A stretch of DNA of 64,000 nucleotides, from positions 62,001 to 126,000 of the forward strand of contig OZ316895.1 in assembly GCA_973895155.1 (NCBI GenBank). The letters are read 5' to 3'. Positions 6,253-64,000 of this stretch are shown piece by piece (position 1 is the first letter of the stretch; each line of letters opens with the position of its first letter). Source of the stretch: Marsupella aquatica (lineage: Eukaryota > Plantae > Marchantiophyta). The notes beneath the pieces are model-generated. The model was not told the DNA's origin. It did not search any database and saw only the letters and a program-made list of their open reading frames with translations. The position numbers were made by a program, and so were the translations under genes.

Positions 6253-8388
6253 CTATGGGTTGTTCTGCAGTAGTTGCCCCACCGTCGCTGTAACCGGGCA
6301 ACTCTTCACGTCTTCCTTAATATCGTAGTTCTCCTTTTTATCCTCTTTCGGCTGCAGCTTGGCTTCCTCTTGCTTTTCTTGCTCCTCTTGCTCCTGGCGC
6401 CGGGCGGTCTCGGCTGCTTTGATGTCCTTATCGATTGCCTTCTGGTATTCCCGAGCTTCGTAGGCCTCCAGCTGTTTCTTTACCAATTCTTCGATGCGGG
6501 GGAAAAATAGCTTCGGGTCGTCCCGTCGGTAGTCATCGTCCTTCTCCGGGGGTATATCTATCGCTGGCTGCACCGGAGTAGTATCTTGCTTTTTCCTTCG
6601 TTTCTCCTCCGTCTTCTCTTCCTTCCGTTCGGCCCTTGTCGACACTCGGTAGCACTCGGCCTCATCCAATGGATCAGGGTGCTCTGCTACGTCCACCAAA
6701 TTCACCCACTCGGTGTTGTCATCTTGCCATTCTACAGCAATCATTTGGACGACTGCATCGCTCGTGGCCGGTCCAGCCTGGGTCGGTCTAGCTGCGCTCG
6801 TTCGAGCAGCAATTACCAACGGACAGTTGGCCGTGGAATGAGCCTCCGTTTTGCAGACTTGACATAGAGGGGTGCCTCAGCCATCTCCTTGACGTCTTGG
6901 TTCGGTGCATTCCCTTGCAAAGTGTCCTGGCTTTTCACAGTTATAACACACCGAGGATCGCCAAATCCCTGGCTTAGGAGGGATGCTCGGGTAACTGATA
7001 ACCTGGAAACTCCGGCCATTGTTTGGGTAGGGGTACGCAATTCTACCCGCTAAATTACACGGACCTACTGTTGAAATCTGGTACACGGAATCAGGAGGGT
7101 CCTCAAAGAAATACTCCGTGGACTCCGATTCGGGACCCGGGTTGTCAACATCATCCAGCTCTACTTGGTGAACTCGATTCTTCCACCTTGGGCATTCCTG
7201 CACCACATGGCCGGATTGGAAGCACTTTGAACACCACGCACGGGCTCGAATCTCAGATGGCTTCTTCTTCTCCACCGGCTTTTCCGCAAGATGTACTGAC
7301 AGTGCTTTGAGTCGATCCGTGATTTCGTTCAGCTTGTCAGCTTCGGCAGCCTTTGGATCTGGTATCGTTCTTCACGCCCGGGGTTTGATCTTCCCCTCCT
7401 TCTTCACTCGTCTCTTCTTCTTTTTGCTCCGGCTTTCGCTCTCCGAGTCACTTCCTGATGAACTGGAGGTAGAGGATCCGGTGCTTGAAGCTGAATCCAA
7501 ACTGGATTCCGTCTCCGAGTTGGACGAGGTCGAACGATGTTTCTTCTTCTTCTTGCGTTTCTTCTTCCTCTCGTCGTCCGATTCGGAGTCACTGTCACTG
7601 AAGGTCTCGTACTTACCCTTCTTACGGCATGCTCGTTGGCTCCGCCGGGAGTTATAGGTGGACTCCCGGTAAGTTTCAGCGCACGCTATGGCCGCCTGCA
7701 TTGAAATCGGATTATTTTGGCGTACCCAGAATTGCATATTCATGGGCAAACCATGAAGGAACCATGTAAGCTGGAGCGCGTCTCCCGGCCTGGGCCGGAT
7801 CTTGGCCGCAAGTTTTTGAAACTTCTGAATGAACTTCCGTAGGGACTCCTTCTTTCCCATGCGAAGCTGGCCAATCTTTAATAGAGAACGCTGTTCCGAT
7901 CCAATGGCACGAAACTCCTGCAGCAATGCAGCTTGGAATTGTGCCCATGTAGTCCCGGGTGGCAACGAGTTGTACCATGGACGAGCTTCTCCCCGCATCA
8001 CTCTCGGGAGGACGGTTAGCTTAATGGCGTCTTCCCCATTAGCTTTAGCAGTGGCTTCAAACTCATCCAACCATTCATCCGGATCATCCCCATGACGCCC
8101 CTTGAAAGGTCGATAATTAAATCGCGATCGTTGCGATATTTGTGGAGGAGCTTGAGCAGCGCGAGCCATCGGTGGAGCGGCTCCCATAGGTGGTGGTGGT
8201 GGTGGTGGTGGCCGTGGAACCACAGGAGGACCGGTCGAACCGGACCCCGAAGGTCCCGGGGGTATGTTCATACGTCGGGGCGAGTGCGAGTCTTCCAAGT
8301 CCGAAGAATCGGAACTTGTCGTGGTTGCACTTTCTCGTTCGCTGGTCAATCTCCTCAAGTAAGCTGCTTGAGAACGAGTGACGGGCAT
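6253..8388 (-). pseudogene. gag: gag with three CCHC zinc knuckles (frameshifted into three ORFs)
   Basis: FKGRHGDDPDEWL...GEARPWY capsid-like motif; knuckles CSKCFQSGHVVQEC, CYNCEKPGHFAREC and CQVCKTEAHSTANC. Confidence 0.9.
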
Positions 8389-8482
8389 TTACTCATATAA
8401 ATGCGATGGTTAGTACTACGTCCTGATGTATCCTGCCTAGGTGAATACGCACCTGTCTCCCCTCTACGATATGTAGAGTGCC

Positions 8483-8499
8483 CCCTCCATCTAGCGCCA
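8483..8499 (-). promoter_or_regulatory. Primer binding site, probably tRNA-Asn
   Basis: Minus TGGCGCTAGATGGAGGG is complementary, with one mismatch, to the recalled plant tRNA-Asn 3' end (CCCTCCTTCTAGCG-CCA). It lies 12 nt from the LTR end. Confidence 0.7.
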
Positions 8500-8511: not shown

Positions 8512-11500
8512 TGTCACGTCATCGGCTGCGGCCTTAACTCAGACTTCAGCTTAGACGGGCACATCCCTCGTAAATCTGAGGGTTTGGGCAGGAAGGGAAG
8601 CACGTAATGCACCTTATTCTCGTAAACTAGCACTAAGTGCGCATACTGCTAAATACGGACACCTCCTAGGTATGGTTTGTGTTCCGCCGCCGGAACGTAC
8701 CTTAGTCGATAGCAGGATTGACCCCTGCTTAAGGGCTTCTAAGCCTTCGTGCTGTCCGCCTTCGATCCGGATTCGATGATACAGGTCCTCAACCCGTGCT
8801 CGCAACCACTTACCCACAGGCTGCACCTTGTGCACGTCTCGGGTAGTGCGTTTGGCCTGGCGCTGCCACCCATATACGAGAAACCCACACACATACACGC
8901 GCACATGCATACAATCTCGATTTACACGAAGGAAAATGATGGGAAAGGATTTTACTACAAAGGGAACATATGCGTACACTTAGTTGACCCGACAGCCCCA
9001 GAATGAATAGGTTCAAGGCCGAGGGTGCACACTACAACGGAGCCCGGCTCCGCACTCGCCTGGCGAGCTTAGTCCTACCCCCTCCCCTTGGTACTCTTTC
9101 ATTCCCAGAGGTCGGGACTCCCCGCACATCCCGTGGACGCCCAACTCTGCAACTAAAAACCCCCCCCCTCGTCTCTACCGAGGGGTGCACTAAATACTAA
9201 GGGACGAGGGACGGGGTGTCCTCTCGCCAAAGATTCACTGACTAAGGTCCTAACTAAGCTGACAGTCAGGCCGGAAAACGGCTGTGTCTTATTAGAAGAT
9301 CCTAATCTACGCAGGCTGGACAGCATGGCAGCGCTGCTGTACCTAAGGCAGGTGCCTGTCCCAAGAGTCTGACTAAGCCAGTCCTAATCCTAATCTATTC
9401 CTACTCCGCTGCTAATGCCTGGCACGCTTGCCAGAGCCGCCCGAATGGGAGCGGCCATCCCGCTGCCTTCGAAGCCTGTCATTGTCCGCCTTGAGGAGAT
9501 GGACCTGGTCCAGCAGAGATTCGTTCTCTCGCCTCGCCGCGTCCGTCTCCTCTGCTGCCTCCTGACAAGCCTCCTCTAGCTGCTGGGCGTCACTTGTCAG
9601 TTTACCCGCCAGCTGGTCCTACTTCTCGGCCTCGGTTTGGAGCCACGCCACCTCGGCCTGCAGCGTGGCTATCTCGGCCATGTCCCGTTGGGCCCGTTCC
9701 TCGGCCTCCTCCAGGTCTTTCTGCCAGGTGACAGTTTGATTCTTCAAACTGTCAATCTGGTTCCGGAGTCGTGTAATCTCGGCCTCGTTCCCAGCTTTGG
9801 CCTGTTCGGCTAGGGCGGTAAGAGCGTGCGCCTTTGCTAACAACTCATCGGCGGCTGCCACCTTGGGTCGTAGTTGCAGAAGCTCAGCCTCTTGAGCCGC
9901 AACTTTGTTCTTTAGGTACACAGACTCCACCCGGTACCGCTCTATCCTCTGAAGGGCCTCTGACTGGGCCCGACCTGCCTTTACTGCGGCAACCAACTCC
10001 TGATTGAAGAAACAGGCTACCTTCCGGGCCATGAACTCCCCGGTATCCCGGGCAATTTGATGAGAGAAATCTCCCAGAAGCCCGTTCAGAAATGTACCCG
10101 GTACGAAGAGTTCCGGGTGGTCCAAGTTGTGCCTGTCCGGAGTTGGGCACGGGCAGACGTCAACACGCGCGGGGGCCGGGGCAGTGACGTCCAGCCCTGG
10201 GGACGTAACGTTGGAAGGGGCTGGAGTGTCCTCCTGCAGCAATGTCTGGTTCTCCGGAATAGCCACCGGTGGGTCTTTGGGAGACCCGAGCTCGGGTAAG
10301 ACCTCCGCCGTACCGACTTCTGTACTTAGCCCGGCTTGTTGGGTCGCATCAACGGTTGCGACAACCGACCCATCCGGTACCTCTTCGGTTACGACTACAG
10401 CTACTTGTGGAGGTGGGGTGGGTGAAGCTGGCGTGTCCGCTGGACTTCGGGCCTCGGGTTGGGGCCGTCTCTCCAAGGCCGGAAAAACCCACCTAGCTGG
10501 GACCAGCTTTGTAACGTTGACACGGGGAAGGGTTCGTCGATCAAACCGGGCGTACCACTCAAGAATGATCTCGATGTGGCTAGCGAAGTATGCCTTCCCG
10601 CCAATGTACAGCGTCTTCCTTCGCCGCTCCATCTCTTCATGGAATTTCTTAGCGAAGTACGACGCCCACCTCCTAGGTCGATAGTTCTCGACCTGGATAA
10701 CCTGGGCGGCGGAGATCTCCCCCCGGGGTTCCATCATGTGGAGGGCGTACCGCTGGAACTCCAGTCGCTCAGCTATATCAGGGATGAGGCAGGTCTTCAT
10801 CACGAACCCGTTGTCCACTGCTCCCTCTGAGGGAAAACTTGAAGATTGGTACTTGGCTCCCTTGCCCCCGGGAGCCCGTGATTTGACTCGATGGTCACCT
10901 TCGGGTAACCCGAAGATCATCCTGAGCCGTTCTTTCGTGAGGGACATACTCCTTCCTGGCAGCCGAGTATGTTGACGCGCGTCGTCATAATTCCTGACGA
11001 ACTCCGTCATGTCCTCCCCGTAGTACCTGCAAGTGTTTCAGGGGAGGGAGGCGAGGTGCTCGAATCCCTGAGTCTTCAGGTACACCGCATGCTTGGGATG
11101 GAGGATGTTTTTGTGAACGTTTTCCCCCATGCGGTGCATCCTCACCTTGGCCACGGCTACCGTGGCCAACGGTAACCCGGATGCAGTGGCGGATTCCTTC
11201 CTCTTCTTCCCCCGTGACTGGCTCGGGGAAGGTGACACCTCCCCATCCTCCCGATCGGGCCTGGGTAGTGCCACTGCCATTAGTAACGGGCCCGGGTCGG
11301 CCACGGTCACCATGTTGTCTGCCAGGGCCGCTCCTGGGGTCAGAGCAAGGGGTGGGGACGATATAGTGTCGGCCCCCTGAGCGCTTGTTCCTCTGGGCCG
11401 CCTGGTCAAGGGTAGGGTAGCCTCGTCGTCATCGCTAAGATCCACAGCGTTGATGATGGAGCGTACTTGTGTTGGCTGGGCGATCGGTGGTGGGGTTTGG

Positions 11501-12521
11501 CTAGGCTGCGGCTGAGGCTGAAGCTGAAGTTGAGCCTGAGGTTGTATGGGTCCGGGTACAGGTACGGGTACGACTGAGTTGGTCATGTTGGTTGCTGGCC
11601 GAGTTCCTATGAAGCTCTGTAGGTGCTGGTAGAAGTTCTCCGAAGCGAGTGCAGACGACCTTGTCGAACGGGTAGTGCTGGACTCGCTGTTGATGATAGC
11701 CCGAACCTGAGCAGGGATGTGGTCGAAGTGATGTCGTTGCAAGTCGATCGTACCCGGGATATTGAAGACCTCGTCCGGAAGCCGAAGCAATGCTTCCCAG
11801 AACCCGATATATTTGTCTCCGTTGAAGAAGTACTCGGATACCTCTGCTGGTCGATAAAGCTCGCTCTGAGACGGGTAGTCAAAGTTAAGGATGTAGTGGT
11901 GTCGTCTTGCTAGGCGGATGGCTCTCTCGTACTCGCGTTCGATTTTGTATCGGTGCGGGTTGGCGTGTTTCAATGAGTCGGCCAAGTGCCTTCCGGTAGA
12001 TAGGAACTGCGTCCAGAATCGAATGGCCGAGCTGAAGAGGATCGTGTGCGACATTCAGAGGAGATAATAGTGGCGACTTAGAGCGAACGAGAGAGCTAGG
12101 GTCGAAGCTGGCGCGTGGACTGATGGACTGGTGCACTACAAAGGGTTGGCTCCCCTTTTATACCTTGAGGGCTTGTCGATCCCCCGACGTCTCCTCAACG
12201 CCCATAGGCTGAACCGCTCACGCTTGTGGTGTGCCGGCCACTCCGCCGGTCTGAGTCAGCGCGTGTCAGTGGCCGCTTCCTTAAGTTCGTTATACGGACC
12301 CGAGGGAGGGGCCCCTCCACGCTCGTAACCCGGATGTGCAAATAGCGACCAGCCGCCAGTCCGAACCTGAATTCCCCCTTATTGCCTAATGATATCCTAC
12401 CCATAATGATTACCTAAATACTGTCGTTATGCTAATAATAGTGGCCTAAGACACTCCTAACGCGCGTGCCGAGCGTAGTTAGACCGAATCACTCATTAAC
12501 CGCCGTACCGGCGGCGTCACA
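8512..12521 (-). repeat. 5' LTR of family A (4010 bp)
   Basis: TG..CA termini; same boundaries as the copies at 16695..20673 and 53677..57656; followed by the PBS. Confidence 0.95.
9412..12054 (-). pseudogene. LTR-encoded ORF, copy 2 (881 codons; in-frame stops near 11038, 9619 and 9578)
   Basis: Track ORFs 11038..12054 and 9619..11010 are one frame and match the intact copy. Stops are TGG>TGA and CAG>TAG. Confidence 0.9.
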
Positions 12522-15863: not shown

Positions 15864-17052
15864 AACAAGGGCCCCCTTTCATTTCATTGTACGTGGCAGC
15901 TTGTGATTAGTGAAACGTCGTTGGAATGTGTGTGACATCAACATTGCTTCCCCTTGTTTTGGGGGACAAAGCTGAGGAGAGGAGAGGAACCGAGAGGCTG
16001 GTAGAGAACAGAGCCGGAGGACTTATTCTTTTGTGGGAGAGAGAGAGAGTAATGAGGACCAAACAATCGCCACGAGGCCAGTTCCTTAGGAGATATACCC
16101 CGACGCAGCTGTGTGCCCGGCCAACAATTTGATGCTCCTTGCTTCTCTCGGTTGATTGGCACTCTCCGGTAAGCTGTTCCGAGAAATTGAGCTTTTGTTT
16201 TGCGCGTAGATAGCTGGTTAGGTGCTCATGTGATCTTTCGGATTTAGGTGGCATTTGTCGAGCTGCTTGGCATAAATTGATCGACCATGGAGAGGAGTGT
16301 GGGACATAGTTGTGCTGCTGTGTGGAGTCTCGTCGAGCTCACAATGTCTGTTGCTTTTCTTGTGGACCTGTGAATGGATTTTTTCGTGAATTTAGGTTTG
16401 GCAGGAAGGTAGGTGTCGATCGGTGGTGGGTAGTAAGCTCGGTCAAGCTGATTCTCTCTGTTGTTGTTGTTGTGTTGTTGACGGGTGGATGAATTTGGTG
16501 TGAATTTAGGGCTGCGACAAAGGTGGAGGTGCCGTAATTGATTTCAGTTGTGCCTGTGCTGCGTAGGAGGGAAGGAGATGAGGGCCATTTAGAGCTCGGC
16601 TTGGAGAGCGGGTTTTTCTTTGCAGAGGTATGAAGTTTCTTCCTCATCCTCAAGTCTAGTTGCACAGAGAAATCTGAGTGCTCCAGCTGCCTCCTCTGAC
16701 GCCGCCGGTACGGCGGTTAATGAGTGATTCGGTCTAACTGCGCTCGGTATGCGCGTTAGGAGTGTCTTAGGCCGCTATTATTAGCATAACGACAGTATTT
16801 AGGTAATCATTATGGGTAGGATATCATTAGGCAATAAGAGGGAATTCAGGTTCGGACTGGCGGCTGGTCGCTATTCGCACACCCGGGTTATGAGCGTGGA
16901 GGGGCCCCTCCTCGGGTCCGTATAACGAACTTAAGGAAGCGGCCACTGACACGCGCTGACTCAGACCGGCGGAGTGGCCGGCACACCACAAGCGTGAGCG
17001 GTTCAGCCTATGGGCGTCGAGGAGACGTCGGGGGATCGACAAGCCCTCAAGG

Positions 17053-17059
17053 TATAAAA
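17053..17059 (+). promoter_or_regulatory. TATA box of the family A LTR, ~108 nt upstream of the LTR ORF ATG
   Basis: GGTATAAAAGG, present in all four copies at the same position. Confidence 0.6.
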
Positions 17060-17160
17060 GGGGAGCCAACCCTTTGTAGTGCACCAGTCCATCAGTCCAC
17101 GCGCCAGCTTCGACCCTAGCTCTCTCGTTCGCTCTAAGTCGCCACTACTATCTCCTCTGA

Positions 17161-19775
17161 ATGTCGCACACGATCCTCTCCAGCTCGGCCATTCGATTCT
17201 GGACGCAGTTCCTATCTACCGGAAGGCACTTGGCCAACTCATTGAAACACGCCAACCCGCACCGATACAAAATCGAACGCGAGTACGAGAGAGCCATCCG
17301 CCTAGCAGGACGACACCACTACATCCTTAACTTTGACTACCCGTCTCAGAGCGAGCTTTACCGACCAGCAGAGGTATCCGGGTACTTCTTCAACGGAGAC
17401 AAATATATCAGGTTCTAGGAAGCATTGCTTCGGCTTCCGGACGAGGTCTTCAATATCCCGGGTACGATCGACTTGCAGCGACATCACTTCGACCACATCC
17501 CTGCTCAGGTTCGGGCTATCATCAACAGCGAGTCCAGCACTACCCGTTCGACAAGGTCGTCTGCACTCGCTTCGGAGAACTTCTACCAGCACCTACAGAG
17601 CTTCATAGGAACTCGGCCAGCAACCAACATGACCAACTCAGTTGTACCCGTACCCGTACCCGTACAACCTCAGGCTCAGCTTCAGCTTCAGCCTCAGCAG
17701 CAGCCTAGCCAAACCCCACCACCGATCGCCCAGCCAGCACAAGTACGCTCCGTCATCAACGCTGTGGATCTTAGCGATGACGACGAGGCTACCCTACCCT
17801 TGACCAGGCGGCCCAGAGGAACAAGCGCTCAGGGGGCCGATACTATATCGTCCCCACCCCCTGCTCTGACCCCAGGAGCGGCCCCGGCAGACAACATGGT
17901 GGCCGACCCGGGCCCGTTACTAACGGCAGTAGCACTACCCAGGCCCAATCGGGAGGATGGGGAGGTGTCACCTTCCCCAAGCCAGTCACAGGGGAAGAAG
18001 AGGAAGGAATCCGCCACTGCATCCGGGTTACCATTGGCCACGGTAGCCGTGGCCAAGGTGACGATGCACCGCATGGGGGAAAATGTTCACAAAAACATCC
18101 TCCATCCCAAGCATGCGGTGTACCTGAAGACTCAGGGATTCGAGCACCTCGCCTCCCTCCCCTGGAACACTTGCAGGTACTACGGGGAGGACATGACGGA
18201 GTTCGTCAGGAATTATGACGATGCGCGTCAACATACTCGGCTACGGGGAAGGAGTATGTCCCTCACGGAAGAACGGCTCAGGATGATCTTCGGGTTACCC
18301 GAAGGTGACCATCGAGTCGAATCACGGGCTCCCGGGGGCAAGGGAGCCAAGTACCAATCTTCAAGTTTTCCCTCAGAGGGAGCAGTGGACAACGGGTTCG
18401 TGATGAAAACCTGCCTCATCCCCGAGATAGCTGAGCGACTGGAGTTCGAGAGGTACGCCCTCCACCTGATGGAACCCCGGGGGGAGATCTCCGCCGCCCA
18501 GGTTATCCAGGTCGAGAACTATCGACCTAGAAGGTGGGCGTCGTACTTTGCTAAGAAATTCCATGAAGAGATGGAGCGGCGAAGGAAGACGCTGTACATT
18601 GGCGGGAAGGCGTATTTCGCTAGCCACATCGAGATCATTCTTGAGTGGTACGCCCGGTTTGATCGACGAACCCTTCCCCGTGTCAACGTTACAAAGCTGG
18701 TCCCAGCTAGGTGGGTTTTCCCGGCCTTGGAGAGACGGCCCCAGCCCGAGGCCCGAAGTCCAGCGGACACGCCAGCTTCACCCACCCCTGTAGTCGTAAC
18801 CGAGGAGGTACCGGATGGGTCGGGTGTCGCAACCGTTGATGCAACCCAACAGGCCGGGCTAAGTACAGAAGTCGGTACGGCGGAGGTCTTACCCGAGCCC
18901 GGTTCTCCCAAAGACCCACCGGTGGCTATTCCGGAGAACCGGACATTGCTACAGGAGGACGCTCCAGCCCCTTCCAACGTTACGTCCCCAGGGCTGGATG
19001 TCACTGCCCCGGCCCCCGCACGTGTGGACGTCTGCCCGTGCCCAACTCCGGACAGGCACAACCTGGACCACCCGGAACTCTTCGTACCGGGTACATTTCT
19101 GAACGGGCTTTTGGGAGATTTCTCTCATCAAATTGCCCGGGATACCGGGGAGTTCATGGCCCGGAAGGTAGCTTGTTTCTTCAATCAGGAGTTGGTTGCC
19201 GCAGTAAAGGAGGTCGGGCCCAGTCAGAGGCCCTTCAGAGGATAGAGCGATACCGGGTGGAGTCCGTGTACCTAAAGAACAAAGTTGTGGCTCAAGAGGC
19301 TGAGCTTCGGCAACTACAACCCAAGGTTGCAGCCGCCGATGAGTTGTTAGCAAAGGCGCACGCTCTTACCGCCCTAGCCGAACAGGCCAAAGCTGGGAAC
19401 GAAGCCGAGATTACACGACTCCGGAACCAGATTGACAGTTTGAAGAATCAAACTGTCACCTGGCAGAAAAACCTGGAGGAGGCCGAGGAACGGGCCCAGC
19501 GGGACACGGCGGAGATAGCCACGTTGCAGGCCGAGGTGGCGCGGCTCCAAACCGAGGCCGAGAAGCAGGACCAGCTGGCGGGTAAACTGACAAGTGACGC
19601 CCAGCAGTTGGAGGAGGCTTGTCAGGAGGCAGCAAAGGAGACGGACGCGACGAGGCGAGAGAACGAATCTCTGCTGGACCAGGTCCAGCTCCTCAAGGCG
19701 GACAATGATAGGCTTCGGAGGCAGCGGGATGGCCGCTCCCATTCAGGTGGCTCTGGCAAGCGTGCCAGGCATTAG
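17161..19775 (+). pseudogene. LTR-encoded ORF, copy 3 (stop at 17416..17418, frameshift near 19210)
   Basis: Three track ORFs reassemble the 871 aa protein. Confidence 0.9.
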
Positions 19776-21189
19776 CGGCGGAGTAGGAATAGATTAGGAT
19801 TAGGCCTAGCTTAGTCAGGCTCTTGGGACAGGCACCTGCCTTAGGTACAGCATCGCTGCCGTGCTGTCCAGCCTGCATAGATTAGGATCTTCTAATAAGA
19901 CACAGCCGTTTCCGGCCTGACTGTCAGCTTAGTTAGGACCGTAGTCAGTGAATCTTTGGTGAGAGGACACCCCGTCCCTCGGCCCTTAGTATTTAGTGCA
20001 CCCCTCGGTAGAGACGAGGGGGGGGTTTTTAGTTGCAAAGTTGGGCGTCCGCGGTATGTGCGGGGAGTCCCGACCTTTGGGAATGAAAGAGTACCAAGGG
20101 GAGGGGGTAGGACTAAGCTCGTCGGGCGAGTGCGGAGCCGGGCTCCTTTGTAGTGTGCACCCTCGGCCTTGAACCTATTCATTCCGGGGCTGTCGGGTCA
20201 ACTAAGTGTACGCATATGTTCCCTTTGTAGTAAAATCATTTCCCATCATTTTCCTTCGTGTAAATCGAGATTGTATGCATGTGCGTGTGTATGTGTGTGG
20301 GTTTCTCGTATATGGGTGGCAGCGCCAGGCCGAACGTACTACCCGAGACGTGCACAGGGTGTAGCCTGCGGGTAAGTGGTTGCGAGCACGGGTTGAGGAC
20401 CTGTATCATCGAATCCGGATCGAAGGCGGACAGCACGAAGGCTTAGAAGCCCTTAAGCCGGGGTCGATCCTGCTATCGACTAAGGTATGTTCTGGCGGCG
20501 GAACACAAACCATACCTAGGAGGTGTCCGTATTTAGCAGTATGCGCACTTAGCGCTAGTTTACGAGAATAAGGTGCATTACGTGCTTCCCTTCCTGCCCG
20601 AACCCTCAGATTTACGAGGGATGTGCCCGTCTAAGCTGAAGTCTGAGTTAAGGCCGCAGCCGATGACATGACACCTCCCCACCACCACCAGGACCTCCAC
20701 CTCCTCCACCACCGCCTCCCGTAGAGAAGACTCATTATGGAGGGCTTTCCGACGCGGATCGGATCTTCACCAACGTATATGGAATTCATGAGCCTTTTCT
20801 CAAGGGGGCGCAGAAGCGGGGCGACTGGTACCAAACGAAGGAGCTGGTCCAGAAAGGCACAGATTGGATTGTGAATGAGATGAAGAAGTCCAGTCTCAGG
20901 GGGCGAGGAGGCGCAGGTTTCCGTCCGGGTTGAAGTGGTCATTCATGCCTAAGGTTTCTGATGGACATCCATCTTATCTAGTCGTCAACGCGGATGAGAG
21001 CGAGCTAGGCACTTGCAAGGATCGCGAGATTATGAGGCATGATCCGCACAAGCTGATGGAGGGCGCCTGATCGCCGGCGTGGGAATGCGAGCAAGGGCGG
21101 TGTCGTAAGGAAATTAGATTATGTCGAGAAAAGCTTGGTTTTGTGTGAAAATATAAAAGTAGAGGTTTTTATGGTAAAAAGTAGATTTT

Positions 21190-53676: not shown

Positions 53677-56600
53677 TGTCATGTCATCGGCTGCAGCCTT
53701 AACTCAGACTTCAGCTTAGATGGGCACATCCCTTGTAAATCTGAGGGTACGGGCAGGAAGGGAAGCACGTAATGCACCTTATTCTCGTAAACTAGCGCTA
53801 AGTGCGCATACTGCTAAATACAGACACCTCCTAGGTATGGTTTGTGTTCCGCCGCCGGAACGTACCTTAGTCGATAGCAGGATCGACCCTGGCTTAAGGG
53901 CTTCTAAGCCTTCGTGCTGTCCGCCTTCGATCCGGATTCGATGATACAGGTCCTCAACCCGTGCTCGCAACCACTTACCCGCAGGCTGCACCCTGTGCAT
54001 GTCTCGGGTAGTGCGTTCGGCTTGGCGCTGCCACCCATATACGAGAAACCCACACACATACACGCGCACATGCATACAATCTCGATTTACACGAAGGAAA
54101 ATGATGGGAAAGGATTTTACTACAAAGGGAACATATGCGTACACTTAGTTGATCCGACAGCCTCGGAATGAACAGGTTCAAGGCCGAGGGTGCACACTAC
54201 AACGGAGCCCGGCTCCGCACTCGCCCGACGAGCTTAGTCCTACCCCCTCCCCTTGGTACTCTTTCATTCCCAGAGGTCGGGACTCCCCGCACATACCGCG
54301 GATGCCCAACTTTGCAACTAAAAAAACCCCCCCGTCTCTACCGAGGGGTGCACTAAATACTGAGGGCCGAGGGACGGGGTGTCCTCTCGCCGAAGATTCA
54401 CTGACTACGGTCCTAACTAAGCTAACAGTCAGGCCGGAAACGGCTGTGTCTTATTAGAAGATCCTAATCTATGCAGGCTGGACAGCACGGCAGCGATGTT
54501 GTACCTAAGGCAGGTGCCTGTCCCAAGAGCCTGACTAAGCTAGGCCTAATCCTAATCTATTCCTACTCCGCCGCTAATGCCTGGCACGCTTGCCAGAGCC
54601 ACCTGAATGGGAGCGGCCATCCCGCTGCCTTCGAAGCCTGTCATTGTCCGCCTTGAGGAGCTGGACCTGGTCCAGCAGAGATTTGTTCTCTCGCCTCGCC
54701 GCGTCCGTCTCCTCTGCTGCCTCCTGACAAGCCTCCTCCAACTGCTGGGCGTCACTTGTCAGTTTACCTGCCAGCTGGTCCTGCTTCTCGGCCTCGGTTT
54801 GGAGCCGCGCCACCTCGGCCTGCAACGTGGCTATCTCCGCCGTGTCCCGCTGGGCCCGTTCCTCGGCCTCCTCCAGGTCTTTCTGCCAGGTGACAGTTTG
54901 ATTCTTCAAACTGTCAATCTGGTTCCGGAGTCGTGTAATCTCGGCTTCCTTCCCAGCTTTGGCCTGTTCGGCTAGGGCGGTAAGAGCGTGCGCCTTTGCT
55001 AACAACTCATCGGCGGCTGCAACCTTGGGTCGTAGTTGCCGAAGCTCAGCCTCTTGAGCTGCAACTTCGTCCTTTAGGTACACGGACTCCACCCGGTACC
55101 GCTCTATCCTCTGAAGGGCCTCTGACTGGGCCCGACCTGCCTTTACTGCGGCAACCAACTCCTGATTGAAGAAACAGGCTACCTTTCGGGCCATGAACTC
55201 CCCGGTATCCCGGGCAATTTGATGAGAGAAATCTCCCAGAAGCCCGTTCAGAAATGTACCCGGTACGAAGAGTTCCGGGTGGTCCAGGTTGTGCCTGTCC
55301 GGAGTTGGGCACGGGCAGACATCCACACGCGCGGGGGCCGGGGCAGTGACGTCCAGCCCTGGGGACGTAACGTTGGAAGGGGCTGGAGCGTCCTCCTGTA
55401 GCAATGTCCGGTTCTCTGGAATAGCCACCGGTGGGTCTTTGGGAGAACCGGGCTCGGGTAAGACCTCCGCCGTACCGACCTCTGTACTTAGCCCGGCCTG
55501 TTGGGTCGCATCAACGGTTGCGACACCCGACCCATCCGGTACCTCCTCGGTTACAACTACAGGGGTGGGTGAAGCTGGCGTGTCCGCTGGACTTCGGGCC
55601 TCGGGCTGGGGCCGTCTCTCCAAGGCCGGGAAAACCCACCTAGCTGGGACCAGCTTTGTAACGTTGACACGGGGAAGGGTTCGTCGATCAAACCGGGCGT
55701 ACCACTCAAGAATGATCTCGATGTGGCTAGCGAAATACGCCTTCCCGCCAATGTACAGCGTCTTCCTTTGCCGCTCCATCTCTTCATGGAATTTCTTAGC
55801 GAAGTACGACGCCCACCTCCTAGGTCGATAGTTCTCGACCTGGATAACCTGGGCGGCGGAGATCTCCCCCCGGGGTTCCATCAGGTGGAGGGCGTACCTC
55901 TCAAACTCCAGTCGCTCAGCTATCTCGGGGATGAGGCAGGTTTTCATCACGAACCCGTTGTCCACTGCTCCCTCTGAGGGAAAACTTGAAGATTGGTACT
56001 TGGCTCCCTTGCCCCCGGGAACCCATGATTCGACTTGATGGTCACCTTCGGGTAACCCGAAGATCATCCTGAGCCGTTCTTCCGTGAGGGACATACTCCT
56101 TCCCCACAACCGAGTATGTTGACGTGCGTCGTCATAATTCCTGACGAACTTCGTCATGTCCTCCCCGTAGTACCTGCAAGTGTTCCAGGGGAGGGAGGCG
56201 AGGTGCTCGAATCCCTGAGTCTTCAGGTACACCGCATGCTTGGGATGGAGGATGTTTTTGTGAACGTTTTCCCCCATGCGGTGCATCGTCACCTTGGCCA
56301 CGGCTACCGTGGCCAATGGTAACCCGGATGCAGTGGCGGATTCCTTCCTCTTCTTCCCCCGTGACTGGCTTGGGGAAGGTGACACCTCCCCATCCTCCCG
56401 ATCGGGCCTGGGTAGTGCTACTGCCATTAGTAACGGGCCCGGGACGGCCACGGTCACCATGTTGTCTGCCGGGGCCGCTCCTGGGGTCAGAGCAGGGGGT
56501 GGGGACGATATAGTATCGGCCCCCTGAACGCTTGTTCCTCTGGGCCGCCTGGTCAAGGGTAGGGTAGCCTCGTCGTCATCGCTAAGATCCACAGCGTTGA

Positions 56601-57656
56601 TGACGGAGCGTACTTGTGCTGGCTGGGCGATCGGTGGTGGGGTTTGGCTAGGCTGCGGCTGAGGCTGAAGCTGAAGCTGAGCCTGAGGTTGTACAGGTAC
56701 GGGTACAACTGAGTTGGTCATGTTGGTTGCTGGCCGAGTTCCTATGAAGCTCTGTAGGTGCTGGTAGAAGTTCTCCGAAGCGAGTGCAGACGACCTTGTC
56801 GAACGGGTAGTGCTGGACTCGCTGTTGATGATAGCCCGAACCTGAGCAGGGATGTGGTCAAAGTGATGTCGCTGCAAGTCGATCATACCCGGGATATTGA
56901 AGACCTCATCCGGAAGCCGAAGCAATGCTTCCCAGAACCCGATATATTTGTCTCCGTTGAAGAAGTACCCGGATACCTCTGCTGGTCGGTAAAGCTCGCT
57001 CTGAGACGGGTAGTCAAAGTTAAGGATGTAGTGGTGTCGTCCTGCTAGGCGGATGGCTCGCTCGTACTCGCGTTCGATTTCGTATCGGCGTGGGTTAGCG
57101 TGTTTCAATGAGTCGGCCAAGTGCCTTTCGGTAGATAGGAACTGCGTCCAGAATCGAATGGCCGAGCTGGAGAGGATCGTGTGCGACATTCAGAGGAGAT
57201 AGTAGTGGCGACTTAGAGCGAATGAGAGAGCTGGGGTCAAAGCTGGCGCGTGGACTGATGGACTGGTGCACTACAAAGGGTTGGCTCCCCTTTTATACCT
57301 TGAGGGCTTGTCGATCCCCCGACGTCTCCTCGACGCCCATAGGCTAAACCGCTCACGCTTGTGGTGTGCCGGCCACTCCGCCGGTCTGAGTCAGCGCGTG
57401 TCAGTGGCCGCTTCCTTAAGTTCGTTATACGGACCCGAGGGAGGGGCCCCTCCACGCTCGTAACCCGGGTGTGCGAATAGCGACCAGCCGCCAGTCCGAA
57501 CCTGAATTCCCCCTTATTGCCTAATGATATCCTATCCATAATGATTACCTAAATACTGTCGTTATGCTAATAATAGTGGCCTAAGACACTCCTAACGCAC
57601 GTGTCGAGCAGAGTTAGACCAAATCACTCATTAACCGCCGTACCGATGGCGTCACA
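53677..57656 (-). mobile_element. Solo LTR of family A without matching TSD
   Basis: Full TG..CA copy with flanks TGAAG and CAGAG; no PBS or PPT adjacent. Confidence 0.92.
54574..57189 (-). CDS. Intact LTR-encoded 871 aa protein: globular N-domain, P/Q-rich linker, NLS-like KKRK, plant-retrotransposon accessory-like domain, C-terminal coiled coil
   Basis: Uninterrupted ORF wholly inside the LTR; three disrupted paralogues and two diverged homologues lie in the window. Confidence 0.85.
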   Translation of the reverse strand: MSHTILSSSAIRFWTQFLSTERHLADSLKHANPRRYEIEREYERAIRLAGRHHYILNFDYPSQSELYRPAEVSGYFFNGDKYIGFWEALLRLPDEVFNIPGMIDLQRHHFDHIPAQVRAIINSESSTTRSTRSSALASENFYQHLQSFIGTRPATNMTNSVVPVPVQPQAQLQLQPQPQPSQTPPPIAQPAQVRSVINAVDLSDDDEATLPLTRRPRGTSVQGADTISSPPPALTPGAAPADNMVTVAVPGPLLMAVALPRPDREDGEVSPSPSQSRGKKRKESATASGLPLATVAVAKVTMHRMGENVHKNILHPKHAVYLKTQGFEHLASLPWNTCRYYGEDMTKFVRNYDDARQHTRLWGRSMSLTEERLRMIFGLPEGDHQVESWVPGGKGAKYQSSSFPSEGAVDNGFVMKTCLIPEIAERLEFERYALHLMEPRGEISAAQVIQVENYRPRRWASYFAKKFHEEMERQRKTLYIGGKAYFASHIEIILEWYARFDRRTLPRVNVTKLVPARWVFPALERRPQPEARSPADTPASPTPVVVTEEVPDGSGVATVDATQQAGLSTEVGTAEVLPEPGSPKDPPVAIPENRTLLQEDAPAPSNVTSPGLDVTAPAPARVDVCPCPTPDRHNLDHPELFVPGTFLNGLLGDFSHQIARDTGEFMARKVACFFNQELVAAVKAGRAQSEALQRIERYRVESVYLKDEVAAQEAELRQLRPKVAAADELLAKAHALTALAEQAKAGKEAEITRLRNQIDSLKNQTVTWQKDLEEAEERAQRDTAEIATLQAEVARLQTEAEKQDQLAGKLTSDAQQLEEACQEAAEETDAARRENKSLLDQVQLLKADNDRLRRQRDGRSHSGGSGKRARH

Positions 57657-58093
57657 CAGAGCGAGCTTTACCGACCCGAAGAGGTATCAGGGTACTTCTT
57701 CGACGGAGGCAAATATATCGGTTTCTGGGAAGCATGCTTTGGCTCCCGGACGCGGTCTTCACTCTCCCGGGCACGATCAACTTGCAGCAACACCACTTCA
57801 ACCACATCCCCGCTCAAGTCCAGGCTATCATCAACAGCAAGTTCAACACTACCCGGTCGACAGGGCCGTCTGCACTTGCTTCAGAAAACCTCCACCGGCA
57901 CCTGCAGAACTTCATGGCAACTCTACCATAACCGACCAGTGCCGGCCAACCCGTGCCCATACCCGTACCTACACCTCCTCGGGCCGGTCCCTGCCACCGG
58001 TCCCACCACCTCTCCGAGTACGATCCATGGTGAATGCGGTGAATACTAGCTCCGAAGATGAGGAGGCTCACCCTCCTCTGAATTGACGGCCGC
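57657..58093 (+). pseudogene. Fragment of a diverged sister (A') of the LTR ORF, cut on both sides by LTRs
   Basis: QSELYRPEEVSGYFFDGGKYIGFWEA/LPDAVFTLPGTINLQQHHFNHIPAQVQAIINS aligns by eye to about aa 62-215 of the 871 aa protein. Confidence 0.85.
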
Positions 58094-61000
58094 TGTGATG
58101 CCTAGCCAGGAATCACTCGGCCAGTTAAGTGGGTAAAGAAGGAGTGCACCCTAGAAACACCTTAGTATAGGGACAAAACAAGGAAAATATAAACAATTAG
58201 GGGCGACTAAGGAACCCAGGCCGAGGCCGGATGTAAGGATGCTGGGGTGAAAACAAGATTAGGGTTAGGGCGCGCTAAGCATTGGCGGCTAGGAAGGATC
58301 AACGGGAGAAAGGACCGAAAGAGGAGAGGGGTAAGGAGCGCTTGCAGGAGATGGTGGCTCATTTGCGAGCACAAACTAGGCAGACGACTACGGGAGGCCA
58401 ACTACTGTCAGCTGCTTAGGCAAGCACTCGGGGAGAGAGTAGATATCGACGATCGACCTAAGGAGGGTATGAGCAACGTCAATCAAGCGGCACATTTCTG
58501 GGGATGCCTGTTCGAACGGGCAACTGAGTACATCAAGACTTACAAGGACGAAGAATCAGAAAGGGCAGCTCGAGAACGACATGAGCTCGCTCGATTGTGG
58601 GAGCTGCAGAAGACGGCTTTCTTAGGAGGCGAACTCATCAAGGCCGAGTTCTTGTGGACTCCTACTTCCAATCAGCTCGACGATCTTCTGTTTTGCGAAG
58701 ACAGAATCATCGGCATTCGAGAGGCCATCAAGAACTGCAACGACATACACTGGGAATTGAAGGGTAGCATGGAAAGGTGGACCCAGGCAACGGTGCTAGG
58801 AGAAACCTCCACGGCAGCCGAGATGAAGAGGAAGGGAGCCGTCAACGATGAAGCCACCCCGGCAAAAAGAACGAGGTCGGCGGCACCAAAGAAGCCAGCC
58901 GAGCAGTAGAGCAGGAGGCAGGGAGAAGCCGAAGAGGAGGAGGACGATCCCATCAATGCCATTCCAACCAGGGATGACACCTGGAAGGGCTGGGCGGCAA
59001 CCCTACCAGCGGAGGTGCAACTACATTTTGCACGGGAGGAGGATGCATGCTTTACGGCCATGCAGACCAAGAAGTACCAAGGCTTCATGGCCGGATCCGG
59101 CTTAGAGGCCTTTGTAAGATTACCATGGCTGAAGCCGGAGGTACCGGAGTCAGACCTATTAGAATTCGTGGGGTCATGGGAACCCGAGACCAATTGCACG
59201 AGGATATATGGGAAGGATTTCTATCTTACTCCCAAGGTGATTGCCGAAGTGTTTGGCTTGCCGATAGGCAATAAGACCAAAGTTGATACCAGGAAGACCT
59301 TGCCTGACAAGGAGTTCCGGTCGTTCCCCGGGCCATCAACGAAGAATGGCTTCTTCCGGAACACCTGCACCAACCCGCACATAGGAGAGATGATCGACTT
59401 CTTGCGGGTGACCATGCATTGTAACTTGCCGAGGGCAGAGATCGGCAAGGCACAGGTCTATCTGGCAGAAAGGTCAGACCCAAGCCGGGACTACAACGGG
59501 TACCTCCTCAACCAATTGAAGAAGATCTTAAAGGAGGAGCAGCAGGTAATTGGCATGGGGAGCGTGTCGCGGCTTGGCTATCACATGCCACTGTTGTGCC
59601 GGTATGCCAGAGGTCAGACCTTTGCCCCAATACTTCCCCTGTAGGTAAGGGCACCCGAGGAAGCCCCAGCACCGAGGCCGGTAGTAGAGAAGCCTCAACC
59701 ACCTGTTAGCCCTACGATTGAGCAGGTGTTTAGGCCAAGGAAGCAAGACTTGCCGATGCAGCAACCAAGCATACAAAATCTGCTGAAAATGCTGGAGAAG
59801 GAAAAGATGACACCGGCTTCGGCAGCAGCACCAATACAGGACACTACCCCAGAGGTCAACCTAAGCAGAATCAGGCCAGAATCCAAGCCGGGTGTTCGAA
59901 TGTACATGGGAGTCTCAAGCTCTGAATCTGAGGCAGAATTGCCTGAAGCTCCTACCGACGAAGAAGAGAGGGAGAAGCCGGAAGTCCAAGAAGTAGAGGA
60001 GGCAGTGGAGGACTGCAGCCATGATAACTCCGGCTATGGGTCGGACCATCACGTTCCAGGAGTAAGGACCTATGGCCGGTTTATCCCCACACTTCCAAGG
60101 GTAGTACAAGGGGACCCCAACCAGCAGAGTAGCCCTGAGTCTCCCCCACCAGATGTTGCTCCCCCGAGCTTTGACGGCATAAAATAGACGGCGCAGGAAT
60201 TTCAGGAGCGAATCAGGCAGGAAGAGGAGGCAGCCCTGGCTAGGGAAAAGGATTTGCCAGGAGGAGATTGGCCGGAGGACATCAGGCGGCTAGCCGAAAA
60301 AGGAAGCAAACCTCTAGCCATGATTGAAGAGATCCGCAAGACGGCTTGGGAGCAGAGGCCGCGATGGGCGATGCCGATCACTTCTACTTATTCCACCTAC
60401 GCTAAGAATAGAGCCATGGAGTATGGTGAGATGTGTGGGGAACTTGCGCTCGGCATCTTTGGGGAGGAGTTGGAGGTAGGACCCTTTTTCCATAGGGAGC
60501 AGTTGGAGAAGAACCAATTAGAAGAAGCGGTGGCTTTAGAGAGAAGCAAGAAGGACGAGGTCATCCGGCGGCTTAGGAGGATGGAAGCCGAGATTGAAGA
60601 TCTAAAGGCGGCCAAGAAAGCCCAAGATGAACTACGGATTAAGCGGCATGAGCTGAACATCATGCAGGGGCAGTTGGACACAGCGCAGGCTGATAATCAT
60701 AATATCAAGGATAAACTGACTCAGACCCAGGGAGAATTGGCCGACGCAATCAAGGACAGTGAGAAATGGAAGAAGGAGCTGAGAAACGCAGAGGAGGCCC
60801 ATATAGCAGTCAACAACCGGGTCACGGCGGAGACTCAAAGAAAGGAATGGGCGTTGAAGGGGGAGCTCGAGAAAATCCGCGGAGCCCTTGAGCAGAAGGA
60901 GGCCGAGTTAGGGAAATCCTATCAAGGGATTATTGCGCTACAGCAGGAGCTTGCGTCCCTGACGGCCAGCTTCAAGGCCGACCTGCGGGAGAAGGACGCC

Positions 61001-62732
61001 CAGCTCGACCAGACTTATGCCAAGATGCATAACATGGAATCTGAGGTCGTAGCGGAGCTCGACAAGGAGCTGAGAGCAACCCAGGAGGAGAGGGCTACCA
61101 CCAAGAAGGAATTGGAGGAAGCCCACAAGGAATTGGAGGAAGCCAAAAACGAGCTAGAGGAGGCACGTAAGGACCTGGATGAGACCCAGGAGGAGTTGGA
61201 GGAAATCACGAGGAAGATGGAGAACCTACAGCGGCGGGCCGACAACCAAACAGAGCGGCTGAAGAAACAAGCCGCAATATTTAAATGCTTAGCTACGTCA
61301 GGTCCATCTCCCATTGGGGCAAACCAGTTACCAGGGGTGGTAATTACCGAAGGACCAGCCGTGACACATGGCCCGGTGCCGGACGTTGGTGGCAAAGGGA
61401 AGGAACAGGCTGTGGAGATAGTGAAGAAGAAGAAGCGGAAACCTTCGGGGTCCGGAGGTTATTCGACCCCTCAAGCCGTACTCAAACCAGCGCCAACCTC
61501 CGGCATGAACACGGCAATAGATTCCGCTATCACCAAAGGTGGGGATGGCGCGGCCCAAGCCGAACTACTCAGTAATGAGGCCGGTATCCCAGATCCACCT
61601 CTTGAGCAAGCCGGGGAGACAGTGGCTGAAGCCGTGGCTGAGGCCGTAGTCGAGAATGATTCCCGAGCCGATGCCGAAGCCGAGGGTGGGCCCAGTCATG
61701 CCGATGAAAAGTTGACTCGGTCAGAGGCAGGTAATCTGTCAGAGGACGGACCAACGGCAGTGGTTGCGGAGGAAGCATTGGGGGCGTCCATTGAGGATCC
61801 ACCACCGGTGTCGTGACGGTGCAAGGGCGCCGTTCCTTTTAGGAAGGGCGGACGTGGAGGTAGGAGGCGTGAGTGGGCAGGGCGGGCGCTGATCTCCAAG
61901 TTTAGGATTAGGATCAGGACCAGGAGCGGCCCTGACACTTAGCTTAGTGGGATTGCGGTTCCACTGGTAGGAGCAACACTTGTGCTCCTGCCTTGCTGTA
62001 CATAGGTAGATTCGGGCAGGTAGGTTACTGTTAGGTAGATTAGGCTTACGCTGCAAAGAATTAGGCGGATCCACTACCAGGATAAGTACCTGGGCAGCGG
62101 GGAGCTCAGGGCCTCTTCTTTAGCAAGTTTTTAGTTTGCACCAGCCGGGCTGGGATCAAGCAATAAGAGAAGCTCTCGGTTAGTCATACCGTGACCTTTT
62201 GTATATTCATGTTTCCTCATGCCTAAGAGCTTAATAGAGTTGGCCTCACGGCTTAGTTCGTAGAGCTTGTGTATGAGATGTACTGTTTGTATGGCAAGTG
62301 CATGGTATGACTCAGTCAGAAGGAGTCATTTTGCTATTTGTGTGTCGCATTAACTTGTGTGAAGAGTGCCCACATCAACCAGAAGGAAGGAAAGTAAGCA
62401 AGGGAGTGAGAGTTGGATGTGTCGAGCTGAGAGAGGTCTTAGCGGCTTAACCAAGCCTATTGGGGATCATTCCGGCGGCGGAATCCAAACATACCTAACC
62501 AGAAGGAGAGGAAGACAAGGGAAGGCCTAGATTAGGCCGGCTACGTATCTCATGACCCGATGAAGGATCTGTCCAGTATATGTGTGTAAAAGGCTAATAG
62601 TAATAGTAGAAGGAGGTTAGCAGCGTCCCATGCCGCTAAGCCGCGGAAACGGCCTCGCCAAGCACGAAACCTGCGGGAATCGGCTTGAGCTGGGGGGTTT
62701 CTTGGGTTTAGGGAGCCATGGGACGCACCACA
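58094..62732 (+). mobile_element. Putative ~4.6 kb coding LTR of a second family (B), solo, no TSD
   Basis: TGTGATGCC start (family A: TGTGACGCC) and CACA end coincide with breaks in both flanking ORFs. Same layout and 3' motifs as family A. Only one copy is present in the window. Confidence 0.7.
58469..61816 (+). pseudogene. Family B LTR ORF (~1115 codons, three in-frame TAG stops)
   Basis: Track ORFs ending 58909, 59644, 60187 and 61816 share one frame. GLEAFVRLPW..EFV..W....RIYGK...LT...I..VFGLP..NGF parallels the family A domain; a long coiled coil follows. Confidence 0.8.
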
Positions 62733-64000
62733 CTTCTCCCGTAATGTTGGCCAATTGTACGGAGCCATTGGAGAACTTCATGGTTACTCTAAAGGGTCCT
62801 AACTAGCGAGTGTAAAGCTTCCCTGGAAACCTACTATACCTACTGTCATAAAGTAATACAAGATCACCAGTGTGAATACTAACTTCTTTCAACTCTTTAT
62901 CATATTGCTGCTTCATGATATTCTGTCTATATTCTACTCTCTCGGCTGAAATCATTCTCGCCTCTTCTAAAGCTTCTAACCTATATTCTCGCTCCTTTAG
63001 GCTCTCCTCCGCTGAGGCTCTTTCCTCAATTGTAACTTGAAATGTCGGTATCTCAAGTTGCATGGGTACCAGGGCTTCTTGTCCAAAGGTTAAGGAGAAG
63101 GGTGTATGACCGGTAGTGGTTTTATAGGCTAAATTATAAGCAAAAACAGCAGCAAATAATTTATCATCCCAATCGAGTTTATTCTGAGCTACTGTCTTGT
63201 TCAATATCTTTCCTATAATTCCGTTTGCTCGTTCTGTCAACCCATTTGCCTTTGGATGGTAGGGAGTAGTAGGCCTATGTCTAACTAAATACTGCTCATT
63301 TAAACGACTAATTATATCATTCAGAAAATGGTTTCCTCTATCACTAACTAATTCTAGGGGTGCACCATACCTGGTGAAGATCTGCTCATACATGAATCTA
63401 GCCGTAGTAATTGCATCATCCTTCATGGTCGGTCTGGCCTCTACCCATTTAGTTGCATAATCCGTAGCCAGGATTATATACTTGTTTTGTCGGGGGTGGG
63501 TCAGTGGTTTCAGAGGTCCGATGTAATCAATACCCCACTTCTCGAATGGTGCCAGAGGTAGAATAGGGTGCAGTGGATGTCTGGTGGACGCCCTTGGTCC
63601 TCCCGTTCGTTGACAAGGATCGCATTGTTTGATAAACTGATAGACATCCTTGTGCAAGGTGGGCCACCAGTAACCGGCATTTAATATCTTTTTAGACGTG
63701 GTTACTAGGGCAAAATGTCCGCCGGCTTCTTCTCCATACATAGCCCGTAAGACTCATTTTACCTCTCCCTTTTCTAAACACCTTTGAATCGTGCCGTTGA
63801 TTCCATGCTTGTGCAGTATGCCTTTAATGCACTGATACTGTCTGACCTTCCGCAAAAAGACTGCGGCTTGTTCTCGGCTTAATCCTGGCTGTAATCTGGA
63901 AGTGCTGAGAAATTGTAAAATCTCAGGGTACCATGTATCAGCTAATTCCACAACGAATAGTTCCTCGTCGGGGAATCGATCATCGATGCAATCCGTGGCA
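62733..64000 (-). pseudogene. pol: Gypsy integrase related to family A, interrupted near its C-terminus by LTR B
   Basis: GGHF, CDPCQR, WGIDYIGP, SDRGNHF, NGLTER, then (W>stop)LGPFRV..SNGSVQL. Stops at 63754 and 62803. Confidence 0.92.

Follow-up and report, generated by a model that had tools for sequence, protein, structure and literature searches.

A 4-kb Ty3/gypsy LTR of the liverwort Marsupella aquatica carries an 871-codon gene for a protein with a predicted VANC-like core

Background

In this work we present an analysis of a 64,000-nucleotide stretch of the genome of Marsupella aquatica (contig OZ316895.1, positions 62,001 to 126,000; hereafter the window), in which self-BLAST revealed four copies of one 4-kb repeat, c1 to c4, with pairwise divergence of 2.0–3.7%. 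Two of them enclose the gag, protease (PR), reverse transcriptase (RT), RNase H (RH) and integrase (IN) region of a Ty3 element, called here family A, and one contains an intact open reading frame (ORF) of 871 codons. The long terminal repeat (LTR) copies, with the primer-binding-site (PBS)-like and polypurine-tract (PPT)-like sequences, are the following (TSD, target site duplication):

1..2423, minus strand: c1, 3' LTR of the full element, incomplete because it runs past the window edge
2394..8388, minus strand: gag-PR-RT-RH-IN in Ty3 order (Pfam matches), interrupted by stops and frameshifts
2424..2436, minus strand: weak PPT-like tract, its last 4 nt (GCTA) mirroring the TAGC that follows the 5' LTR
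8482..8499, minus strand: PBS-like sequence with a TGG start, 12 nt past the 5' LTR end
8512..12521, minus strand: c2, 5' LTR of the full element
16695..20673, plus strand: c3, solo LTR with the 5-bp TSD CCTCC
53677..57656, minus strand: c4, 3980 bp, TG..CA, solo-like, carrying the intact ORF
54574..57189, minus strand: intact 871-codon ORF, entirely within c4 and in gag-pol sense, 2616 of 3980 bp (66%)

Results

Anatomy of the LTR

The original prediction, made from the sequence alone, described four TG..CA copies of one repeat, two of them flanking gag-pol together with a PBS and a PPT and one being solo with a perfect TSD. Four copies are present and two do flank gag-pol, but the termini are less uniform than stated, TG..CA being found at both ends of c2 and c4 and TG at the 5' end of c1, which the window edge cuts, whereas c3 starts with TC instead of TG and ends in CA. 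The solo copy with the perfect TSD is c3, a clean insertion with duplicated CCTCC, located directly upstream of a stretch matching NDUFV1. At c4 no TSD is seen (flanks CTCTG and CTTCA), and neither a PBS nor a PPT adjoins it.

The 4-kb repeat behaves as a true Ty3/gypsy LTR, as had been claimed, and not as a separate element. This conclusion rests on the clean insertion of c3 and on four properties of the full element. The copies c1 and c2, in direct orientation around the gag-PR-RT-RH-IN region, are the closest pair (49 of 2425 aligned positions differ, 2.0%, against 2.7–3.7% for the other five pairs); 22 of the 26 codons which split the four copies two against two put c1 with c2; c2 has no TSD of its own, contrary to what a separate element with its own TSDs around gag-pol would show; and the inner junctions are symmetric beyond TG and CA (GCTA/TG and CA/TAGC, the slash marking the LTR border). 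An extended inverted repeat of this kind is what processing at both ends of a single cDNA would be expected to leave. Against these observations, and the absence of any other LTR candidate around gag-pol in the self-BLAST of the window, it is very improbable that the 4-kb unit is an independent mobile element with TG..CA ends, inserted by chance on both sides of gag-pol, the more so as the c1–c2 differences are neutral (see below). Such an origin would be compatible with the distance of 12 nt to the PBS-like sequence, the weak PPT, and the missing TSDs of c4 and of a second unit described below, named B; the outer TSD of the full element lies beyond the window, since c1 crosses its edge.

The PBS-like sequence is a putative match to tRNA-Asn. 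It lies outside the range of 0–5 nt from the LTR that was searched for PBSs in PMC6317226. The four-base symmetric extension past TG and CA occupies positions 2424–2427 and 8508–8511, and the 12-nt spacer preceding the PBS-like sequence is T-rich and, in a part of the run depth, has one more base; together the extension and the spacer suggest unusual end processing by the family A integrase. The LTR has a greater read depth than the internal region; such depths are not to be read as copy numbers. Loose ends at the c4 termini, i.e. PBS or PPT flanks of further copies, were absent from the 24 of 431 read-contig matches listed.

The ORF and its state in the four copies

The ORF in c4 extends from LTR position 468 to a point 897 nt ahead of the LTR end, so that the full element carries two copies of the gene and a solo LTR retains one, in agreement with the original prediction. 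Its further statement that each repeat holds the same sense-strand ORF fits c4 in strand and extent, but the frame is intact in only one copy of the four: c1 has a stop at codon 35, c2 has stops at codons 335 and 803, and c3 has a stop at codon 86 together with a frameshift. Each of these four stops is private to one copy. The codon-335 stop of c2 is missing from >99% of the depth in sequencing runs X1, X2 and X5, a fourth run having no cover there (X1 or X2 may share its source with the window).

The claim of an intact ORF surviving in a solo LTR that has a perfect TSD had thus merged two copies, since the intact c4 is without TSD and the TSD-bearing c3 is broken. Survival itself also cannot be read from c4: the rates of change between c1 and c2 give a neutral expectation of 1.65 stops per copy, a probability of 0.19 that a copy has no stop, and one of 0.57 that at least one copy in four is intact. 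Therefore c4 says nothing about the upkeep of solo copies, and one intact ORF among four fits neutral decay.

Some contigs of runs X2, X5 and X7 cease to match at positions 54557–54562, just beyond the stop codon of the ORF, which suggests related subfamilies whose ORF ends alike but whose trailer differs.

Selection and homologues

Both LTRs of an element are identical at insertion, so the c1–c2 pair served as an internal neutral control. It shows 8 synonymous and 27 non-synonymous differences, with a ratio of non-synonymous to synonymous divergence (dN/dS) of 1.13. For the five pairs that compare different insertions the ratio is 0.23, 0.26, 0.30, 0.35 and 0.37; their dN (0.014–0.022) is not above that of the control (0.019), while dS reaches 0.046–0.076 versus 0.017. 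Fisher tests, made for three of the five pairs, gave p 0.0013, 0.0005 and 0.008, the pairs not being independent of each other. A related fragment, A' (see below), compared with A gave dN/dS 0.34 over 85 codons (bootstrap 0.16–0.81). For A against A' the ratio proposed earlier as a check is not near 1, and because it is so much lower between insertions than within one element, the 871-codon ORF is a real gene under purifying selection.

A search of 1.84 billion representatives yielded 39 homologue representatives at E≤0.001. Among the 20 matches looked up, five are named proteins of the liverwort Calypogeia fissa, the others being without name or 'hypothetical', and a search of longer proteins with the profile of alignment A1 added two further full-length C. 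fissa homologues. The C. fissa homologues include CAM6086213.1, CAM6101870.1 and CAM6082161.1, together with P0054 and P0055. Neither the whole ORF nor alignment A2 gave any match in word-index searches. The five long homologues (630–906 aa, 19–31% identity) all have the N-terminal domain and the core described below, four of them have the coiled coil, and three end in a GKR tail like that of the c4 protein. The homologue P0040 aligns across aa 13–870 with 29% identity (pairwise E 1e-97). Identity is highest in the core (45% for P0040, 24–27% for the four others). These alignments show the three-part protein to be deeply conserved. Two isolated matches, one of 16 residues in a viral contig (L001) and one of the coiled coil only in a metagenome (L002), were taken as chance and dropped; the other metagenome scans gave 0 matches.

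The GC content of 57–58%, the long low-complexity linkers and the lack of a Pfam family are features which might also be seen if the frame were dead or had arisen by chance in GC-rich repeat DNA. There is, however, practically no likelihood left for this explanation, which is refuted by dN/dS values far below the neutral control, by homologues at 21–31% identity with the same domains and by a confidently predicted fold.

Fragment A' and unit B

Next to c4 lie the fragment of a related ORF and a second, distantly related unit:

57657..58093, plus strand: fragment A', piece of a related ORF, 81–85% identical in nucleotide sequence, which c4 interrupts on the left and B on the right
58094..62732, plus strand: unit B, 4639 bp, TG..CA, with a distant sense-strand homologue of the ORF
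53832..53860 (A) and 62470–62497 (B): 29-nt non-coding block near the LTR 3' end, 26/29 identical
62733..64000, minus strand: integrase from a related Ty3 element, 64% identical to family A in aa sequence and cut short by unit B

Unit B begins with TGTGATGCC, compared with TGTGACGCC for LTR A, and its end is CA; both ends coincide with break points, one in the A' frame and the other in a pol gene. It consists of a 375-nt leader, the homologous ORF (58469–61816, with three internal stops) and a 0.9-kb trailer. The B protein is about 21–26% identical to that of A and has the same N-domain, core (25% identity) and coiled coil. As B is without TSD and its own gag-pol is not seen alongside in the window, its LTR status is something we infer. 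The possibility that family B had an antisense ORF or an inverted LTR was considered and rejected, B being a sense-ORF unit inserted opposite to the pol gene which it truncates. The position of the gene inside the LTR, known here from A and B, appears to be old and long-lasting, because it is common to both at such low protein identity.

The 29-nt block includes a short hairpin-forming palindrome, and in both units its antisense strand begins with the splice-donor-like AG/GTATG; it could be a packaging element, a priming element or the mark of an antisense spliced RNA. Over 53677–62732 the TSD-less c4 and B face away from each other around the 437-bp A' fragment, an arrangement suggestive of nested insertion with later recombination or deletion.

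Internal region and lineage

The Pfam matches follow the Ty3/gypsy domain order (gag, PR, RT, RH, IN), and the 6.1 kb between c2 and c1 are gag-pol from end to end with no extra ORF. The integrase frame terminates 30 nt inside c1, therefore no internal 3' non-coding region exists. A Pfam scan of the pol frames at E≤0.1 found no second RNase H family, such as the archaeal-type RNase H (aRH) of the Tat clade, and the gap between RH and IN is about 100 codons.

Lack of aRH and a 5-bp TSD are Athila-like traits, Athila being described with these and with a PBS mostly of Asp, Asn or Ala type (PMC6317226). The Athila-type internal extra ORF and long internal non-coding part are not found in family A, whose internal region is gag-pol only. 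A polyprotein filling nearly the entire internal region is instead a trait of Phygy and Selgy; unlike family A, with its 5-bp TSD and 871-codon ORF, these are reported with 4-bp TSDs and no extra ORF (PMC6317226). Judged by its domains and termini, the family A element appears to match no named non-chromovirus lineage in full. A liverwort genome paper gives lineages only (PMC12885004).

Predicted protein structure

From N- to C-terminus the ORF protein is composed of an N-domain, a P-rich linker, a VANC/PMD-like core, a linker, a coiled coil and a basic tail (GKRAR):

56800..57177, minus strand: N-terminal helical domain, aa 5–130, kept in full-length homologues and in B
55690..56304, minus strand: core domain, aa 296–500, AlphaFold confidence (pLDDT) mostly >90, structural match to VANC21
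54619..55122, minus strand: long coiled-coil helix, aa 690–857

AlphaFold2 with a 46-sequence alignment gave two confident domains, aa 5–130 and about 296–500, and the single-sequence prediction gave the coiled-coil helix (aa 690–857) alone. The top Foldseek match was the DNA-bound VANC21 (9LNJ; probability 0.69), and VIA-align against VANC21 gave Z 8.3 and an rmsd (root-mean-square deviation) of 4.2 over 214 aligned residues. Of 48,161 solved chains VANC21 alone reached Z≥5 (8.2, with rmsd 4.4, 217 residues aligned, model residues 296–528); the next match reached Z 4.9 and fell on the N-domain, not on the core. The superposed residues of VANC21 are 294–588, and the whole core domain is covered. 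In spite of a Z near 8 we credit this match because of the gap to the next one and the whole-domain cover, and regard the core as a borderline case of a distant VANC/PMD-fold member.

Family-level leads for the protein from the Atlas point in the same direction and are all below 0.9 (DUF1985 0.82, PMD 0.81, ATHILA 0.81, Transposase_32 0.80); Transposase_32 was matched by one of the 27 aligned homologues (E 0.059). For the N-domain, searched inside the 530-residue model, the best fold match was the one with Z 4.9 and the best Atlas lead 0.76. The BFVD fold search had 0 matches at E≤0.001, and sequence searches of the PDB with alignments A1 and A2 gave weak matches or coiled-coil noise. No transmembrane stretch stands out, the best 19-residue hydropathy being 1.47 and lying within a linker, which makes an env-like membrane protein unlikely.

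Regulatory sequence, motifs and methylation footprint

One promoter-like element was located in the LTR:

57291..57297, minus strand: TATAAAA box, LTR position 360, 108 nt upstream of the ATG, putative promoter

No other site of the LTR matches TATA[AT]A[AT], no poly(A)-like signal is seen between this box and the ATG, and the 0.9-kb trailer of LTR A has GU-rich and AATAAG stretches. With these signals a promoter, the ORF and a terminator would all be present in a solo LTR. The alternative that the gene works in full-length elements only, perhaps as first cistron on their genomic RNA, with its place in the LTR an accident due to a moved priming or poly(A) site and the solo copies silent by-products, we consider unlikely. 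It agrees with three broken copies and a single intact one that fits neutral decay, with the neutral c1–c2 differences, mostly at CG and CHG sites, and with the only canonical TATA preceding the ORF, which would make the ORF first on the genomic RNA. It accounts less well for a solo LTR that keeps TATA, ORF and trailer with no intervening poly(A)-like signal, and for an LTR position that B has in common with A and which is hence long-lasting.

Among 4-mers TTAG ranks first in non-coding sequence of LTR A (19 versus 7.4, max-statistic p 0.007) and likewise of unit B (21 versus 8.4, p 0.003); the excess is confined to the sense strand and is not found in the ORFs of A and B. Private transitions per 1000 sites amount to 34 at CG, 20 at CHG, 4.9 at CHH and 1.0 at A/T, and this concentration at CG and CHG means that the family A copies were methylated after insertion. 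The observed/expected CpG ratio (CpG o/e) is 0.85–0.95 in family A and 0.41–0.67 in eight other stretches.

Other features of the window

Copy c3 (region 16690–20930) lies within the 5' coding part of a copy of the gene for NDUFV1, the 51-kDa subunit of complex I; the 84 residues past the insertion match plant NDUFV1 with E 1e-42, and the gene copy hit by c3 is probably a pseudogene. The full element is itself inserted in the integrase of a Ty1/copia element (region 12522–15900):

gag 13479–14339 and pol 12479–13150, minus strand: Ty1/copia element with a Met-type PBS and an LTR from about 15448

Minus-strand ORFs with DUF7869 at 29845–33136 probably belong to a DNA transposon; DUF7869 and the plant-like NDUFV1 fragment both mark the host as a land plant. 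Four plus-strand ORFs of 153–424 aa at 41942–45429, of which the three scanned had no Pfam family at E≤0.05, are possibly a spliced transposon or a host gene.

Discussion

A proposed DNA-binding factor encoded by the LTR

We propose, at a probability of roughly 0.45, that the product of the LTR gene has the VANC/PMD fold, forms oligomers in the nucleus, binds DNA and keeps cognate LTRs active, likely by anti-silencing. This function is inferred from the fold match together with the fact that VANC and PMD-C oppose silencing at DNA motifs; the anti-silencing guess of the original prediction thereby gains independent support from the VANC21 fold of the predicted core. Each LTR, solo ones included, is on this model likely to be a self-contained gene for the factor. 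Transcription would be driven by the TATA box (LTR position 360) and end at a poly(A) site within the 0.9-kb trailer, with the ORF lying either in the R region or in U3 with its own promoter. The protein would be imported into the nucleus by means of its basic tail, oligomerise through the coiled coil and bind short motifs in the non-coding parts of the LTR, and DNA-methylation or Polycomb silencing would be relieved locally, in cis and in trans. As to origin, an internal accessory ORF of PMD-CC or Athila type may have been drawn into the LTR by a shifted priming or poly(A) site, which would explain why the internal region is now gag-pol only.

Several observations weigh against this proposal. 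Three of the four ORF copies are dead. The VANC21 match is borderline, with Z about 8, 8–11% identity and a Foldseek E of 0.40; the structure was searched as a 530-residue model and not as a single core domain, a Z near 8 may, by the caution of the search tool, reflect a common arrangement, and a shared fold proves no function in any case. The query itself has no Pfam match to DUF1985, PMD, ATHILA or Transposase_32. The TTAG(G) motif is telobox-like and also dense in the 15.4–16.8 kb bin, which is mostly non-LTR sequence, so that, being short as well, it is a lead only; a tandem array of a long motif, as at VANC targets, was not seen in k-mer counts. Finally, the methylation footprint indicates that the copies present here are not kept unmethylated, and the high CpG o/e of family A may be due to youth.

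The same gene of the VANC/PMD fold could do another nuclear job, such as tethering the integration complex, plain transcriptional activation, or limiting copy number through repression of, or interference with, related elements, a possibility that is doubtful but has to be taken seriously. The anatomy and the selection data fit it equally well, and the N-domain, for which no fold match was found, could hold the main activity. MAIN and MAIL1, which have the same fold, were first described as needed for silencing (PMC5418596), and the function of PMD-CC and Tr28-CC is stated as unknown in PMC4408406, PMC11963269 and PMC7264820. What speaks for an anti-silencing factor instead is that VANC and PMD-C, the two members of the fold that have been characterised, each act against a silencing mark at DNA motifs, and that the LTR position, which multiplies the gene via solo LTRs, would suit a trans-acting factor better than a particle component.

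A wider picture can be drawn, which as a whole we hold to be rather unlikely. An old plant Ty3 lineage would have moved a gene for a VANC-like, sequence-specific anti-silencing factor into its LTR, thus making the LTR promoter, gene and target at once; solo LTRs would leave working genes that act in trans on full-length copies; and the fold would predate flowering plants, with such elements a candidate source of VANC and MAIN. The formation of solo LTRs is the host's main route for deleting retrotransposons. Apart from this picture, a gene in the LTR changes the meaning of solo LTRs, since recombination that deletes gag-pol would leave the accessory gene in place. Whether LTR elements have VANC-type anti-silencing proteins becomes directly testable at this locus, which has a naturally intact ORF, a hypothesis based on the fold and, as compact candidate target, 1.4 kb of LTR sequence that does not code, and surveys reporting no extra ORFs in moss non-chromoviruses may merit a second look at the LTRs.

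Comparison with known systems

The nearest structural likeness is to VANC21 of the VANDAL Mutator-like transposons (PDB 9LNJ, 9LNK), which is also a transposon-encoded accessory protein and agrees in the core fold and in having a coiled coil (PMC13547354). It recognises a motif of 9 bases located in non-coding regions of its own transposon, and it removes methylation (PMC5735166). In contrast to VANC, the family A gene lies in a Ty3 LTR, is intronless and encodes an extra N-domain; its product has no Pfam match to DUF1985 and only 8–11% identity to VANC21. VANC is moreover described as dicot-specific (PMC13547354), whereas the only named homologues of the family A protein are from a liverwort.

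VANC is structurally homologous to MAIN (PMC13547354), and the PMD-C proteins (MAIN/MAIL) are reported to counter Polycomb silencing at DNA motifs and to resemble the DUF1985 of VANC (bioRxiv 10.1101/2024.09.27.615353). MAIN, MAIL1 and MAIL2 are thus placed in the VANC fold family by published comparisons, not by direct comparison with the family A protein, and unlike the family A gene they are host genes. Angiosperm Gypsy elements encode PMD-A clades (PMC5418596), and the retrotransposon PMD-A proteins are called untested for such a function (bioRxiv 10.1101/2024.09.27.615353).

Closer in genomic setting are the accessory ORFs of other non-chromovirus Ty3 elements, namely PMD-CC and Tr28-CC of Tat (Ogre, Retand, TatIII) and the Transposase_32/ATHILA ORF of Athila. 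PMD-CC and Tr28-CC have a globular domain followed by a coiled coil (PMC4408406), as has the family A protein, whose domain is assigned by predicted fold and weak leads. Descriptions of extra ORFs in plant LTR elements place them in the internal region (PMC7264820; also PMC11963269 and PMC11728184); those of Tat encode PMD-CC or Tr28-CC, and moss Tat-like elements are reported without any (PMC4408406). The function of such ORFs is a long-standing open question (PMC7264820, PMC4408406), and whether LTR elements encode VANC-like modulators is likewise called open (PMC12844716). The family A ORF had been presented as different from these known extra ORFs, and as to position it is, lying in the LTR and hence twice per element, whereas theirs are internal and occur once; the protein, however, resembles the products of PMD-CC, Tr28-CC and Athila type.

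No plant LTR-encoded ORF of this kind was found in the literature searched, which covered few subscription papers. Coding frames within an LTR, at both ends of the provirus, occur in mouse mammary tumour virus (sag) and human immunodeficiency virus (the nef overlap), which differ from family A in that the proteins are unrelated, the LTRs far shorter and the elements vertebrate retroviruses. PMD-type extra ORFs being already known from internal regions, the type of protein is, on its predicted fold, a distant relative of a known accessory fold, and the new point is its position in the LTR.

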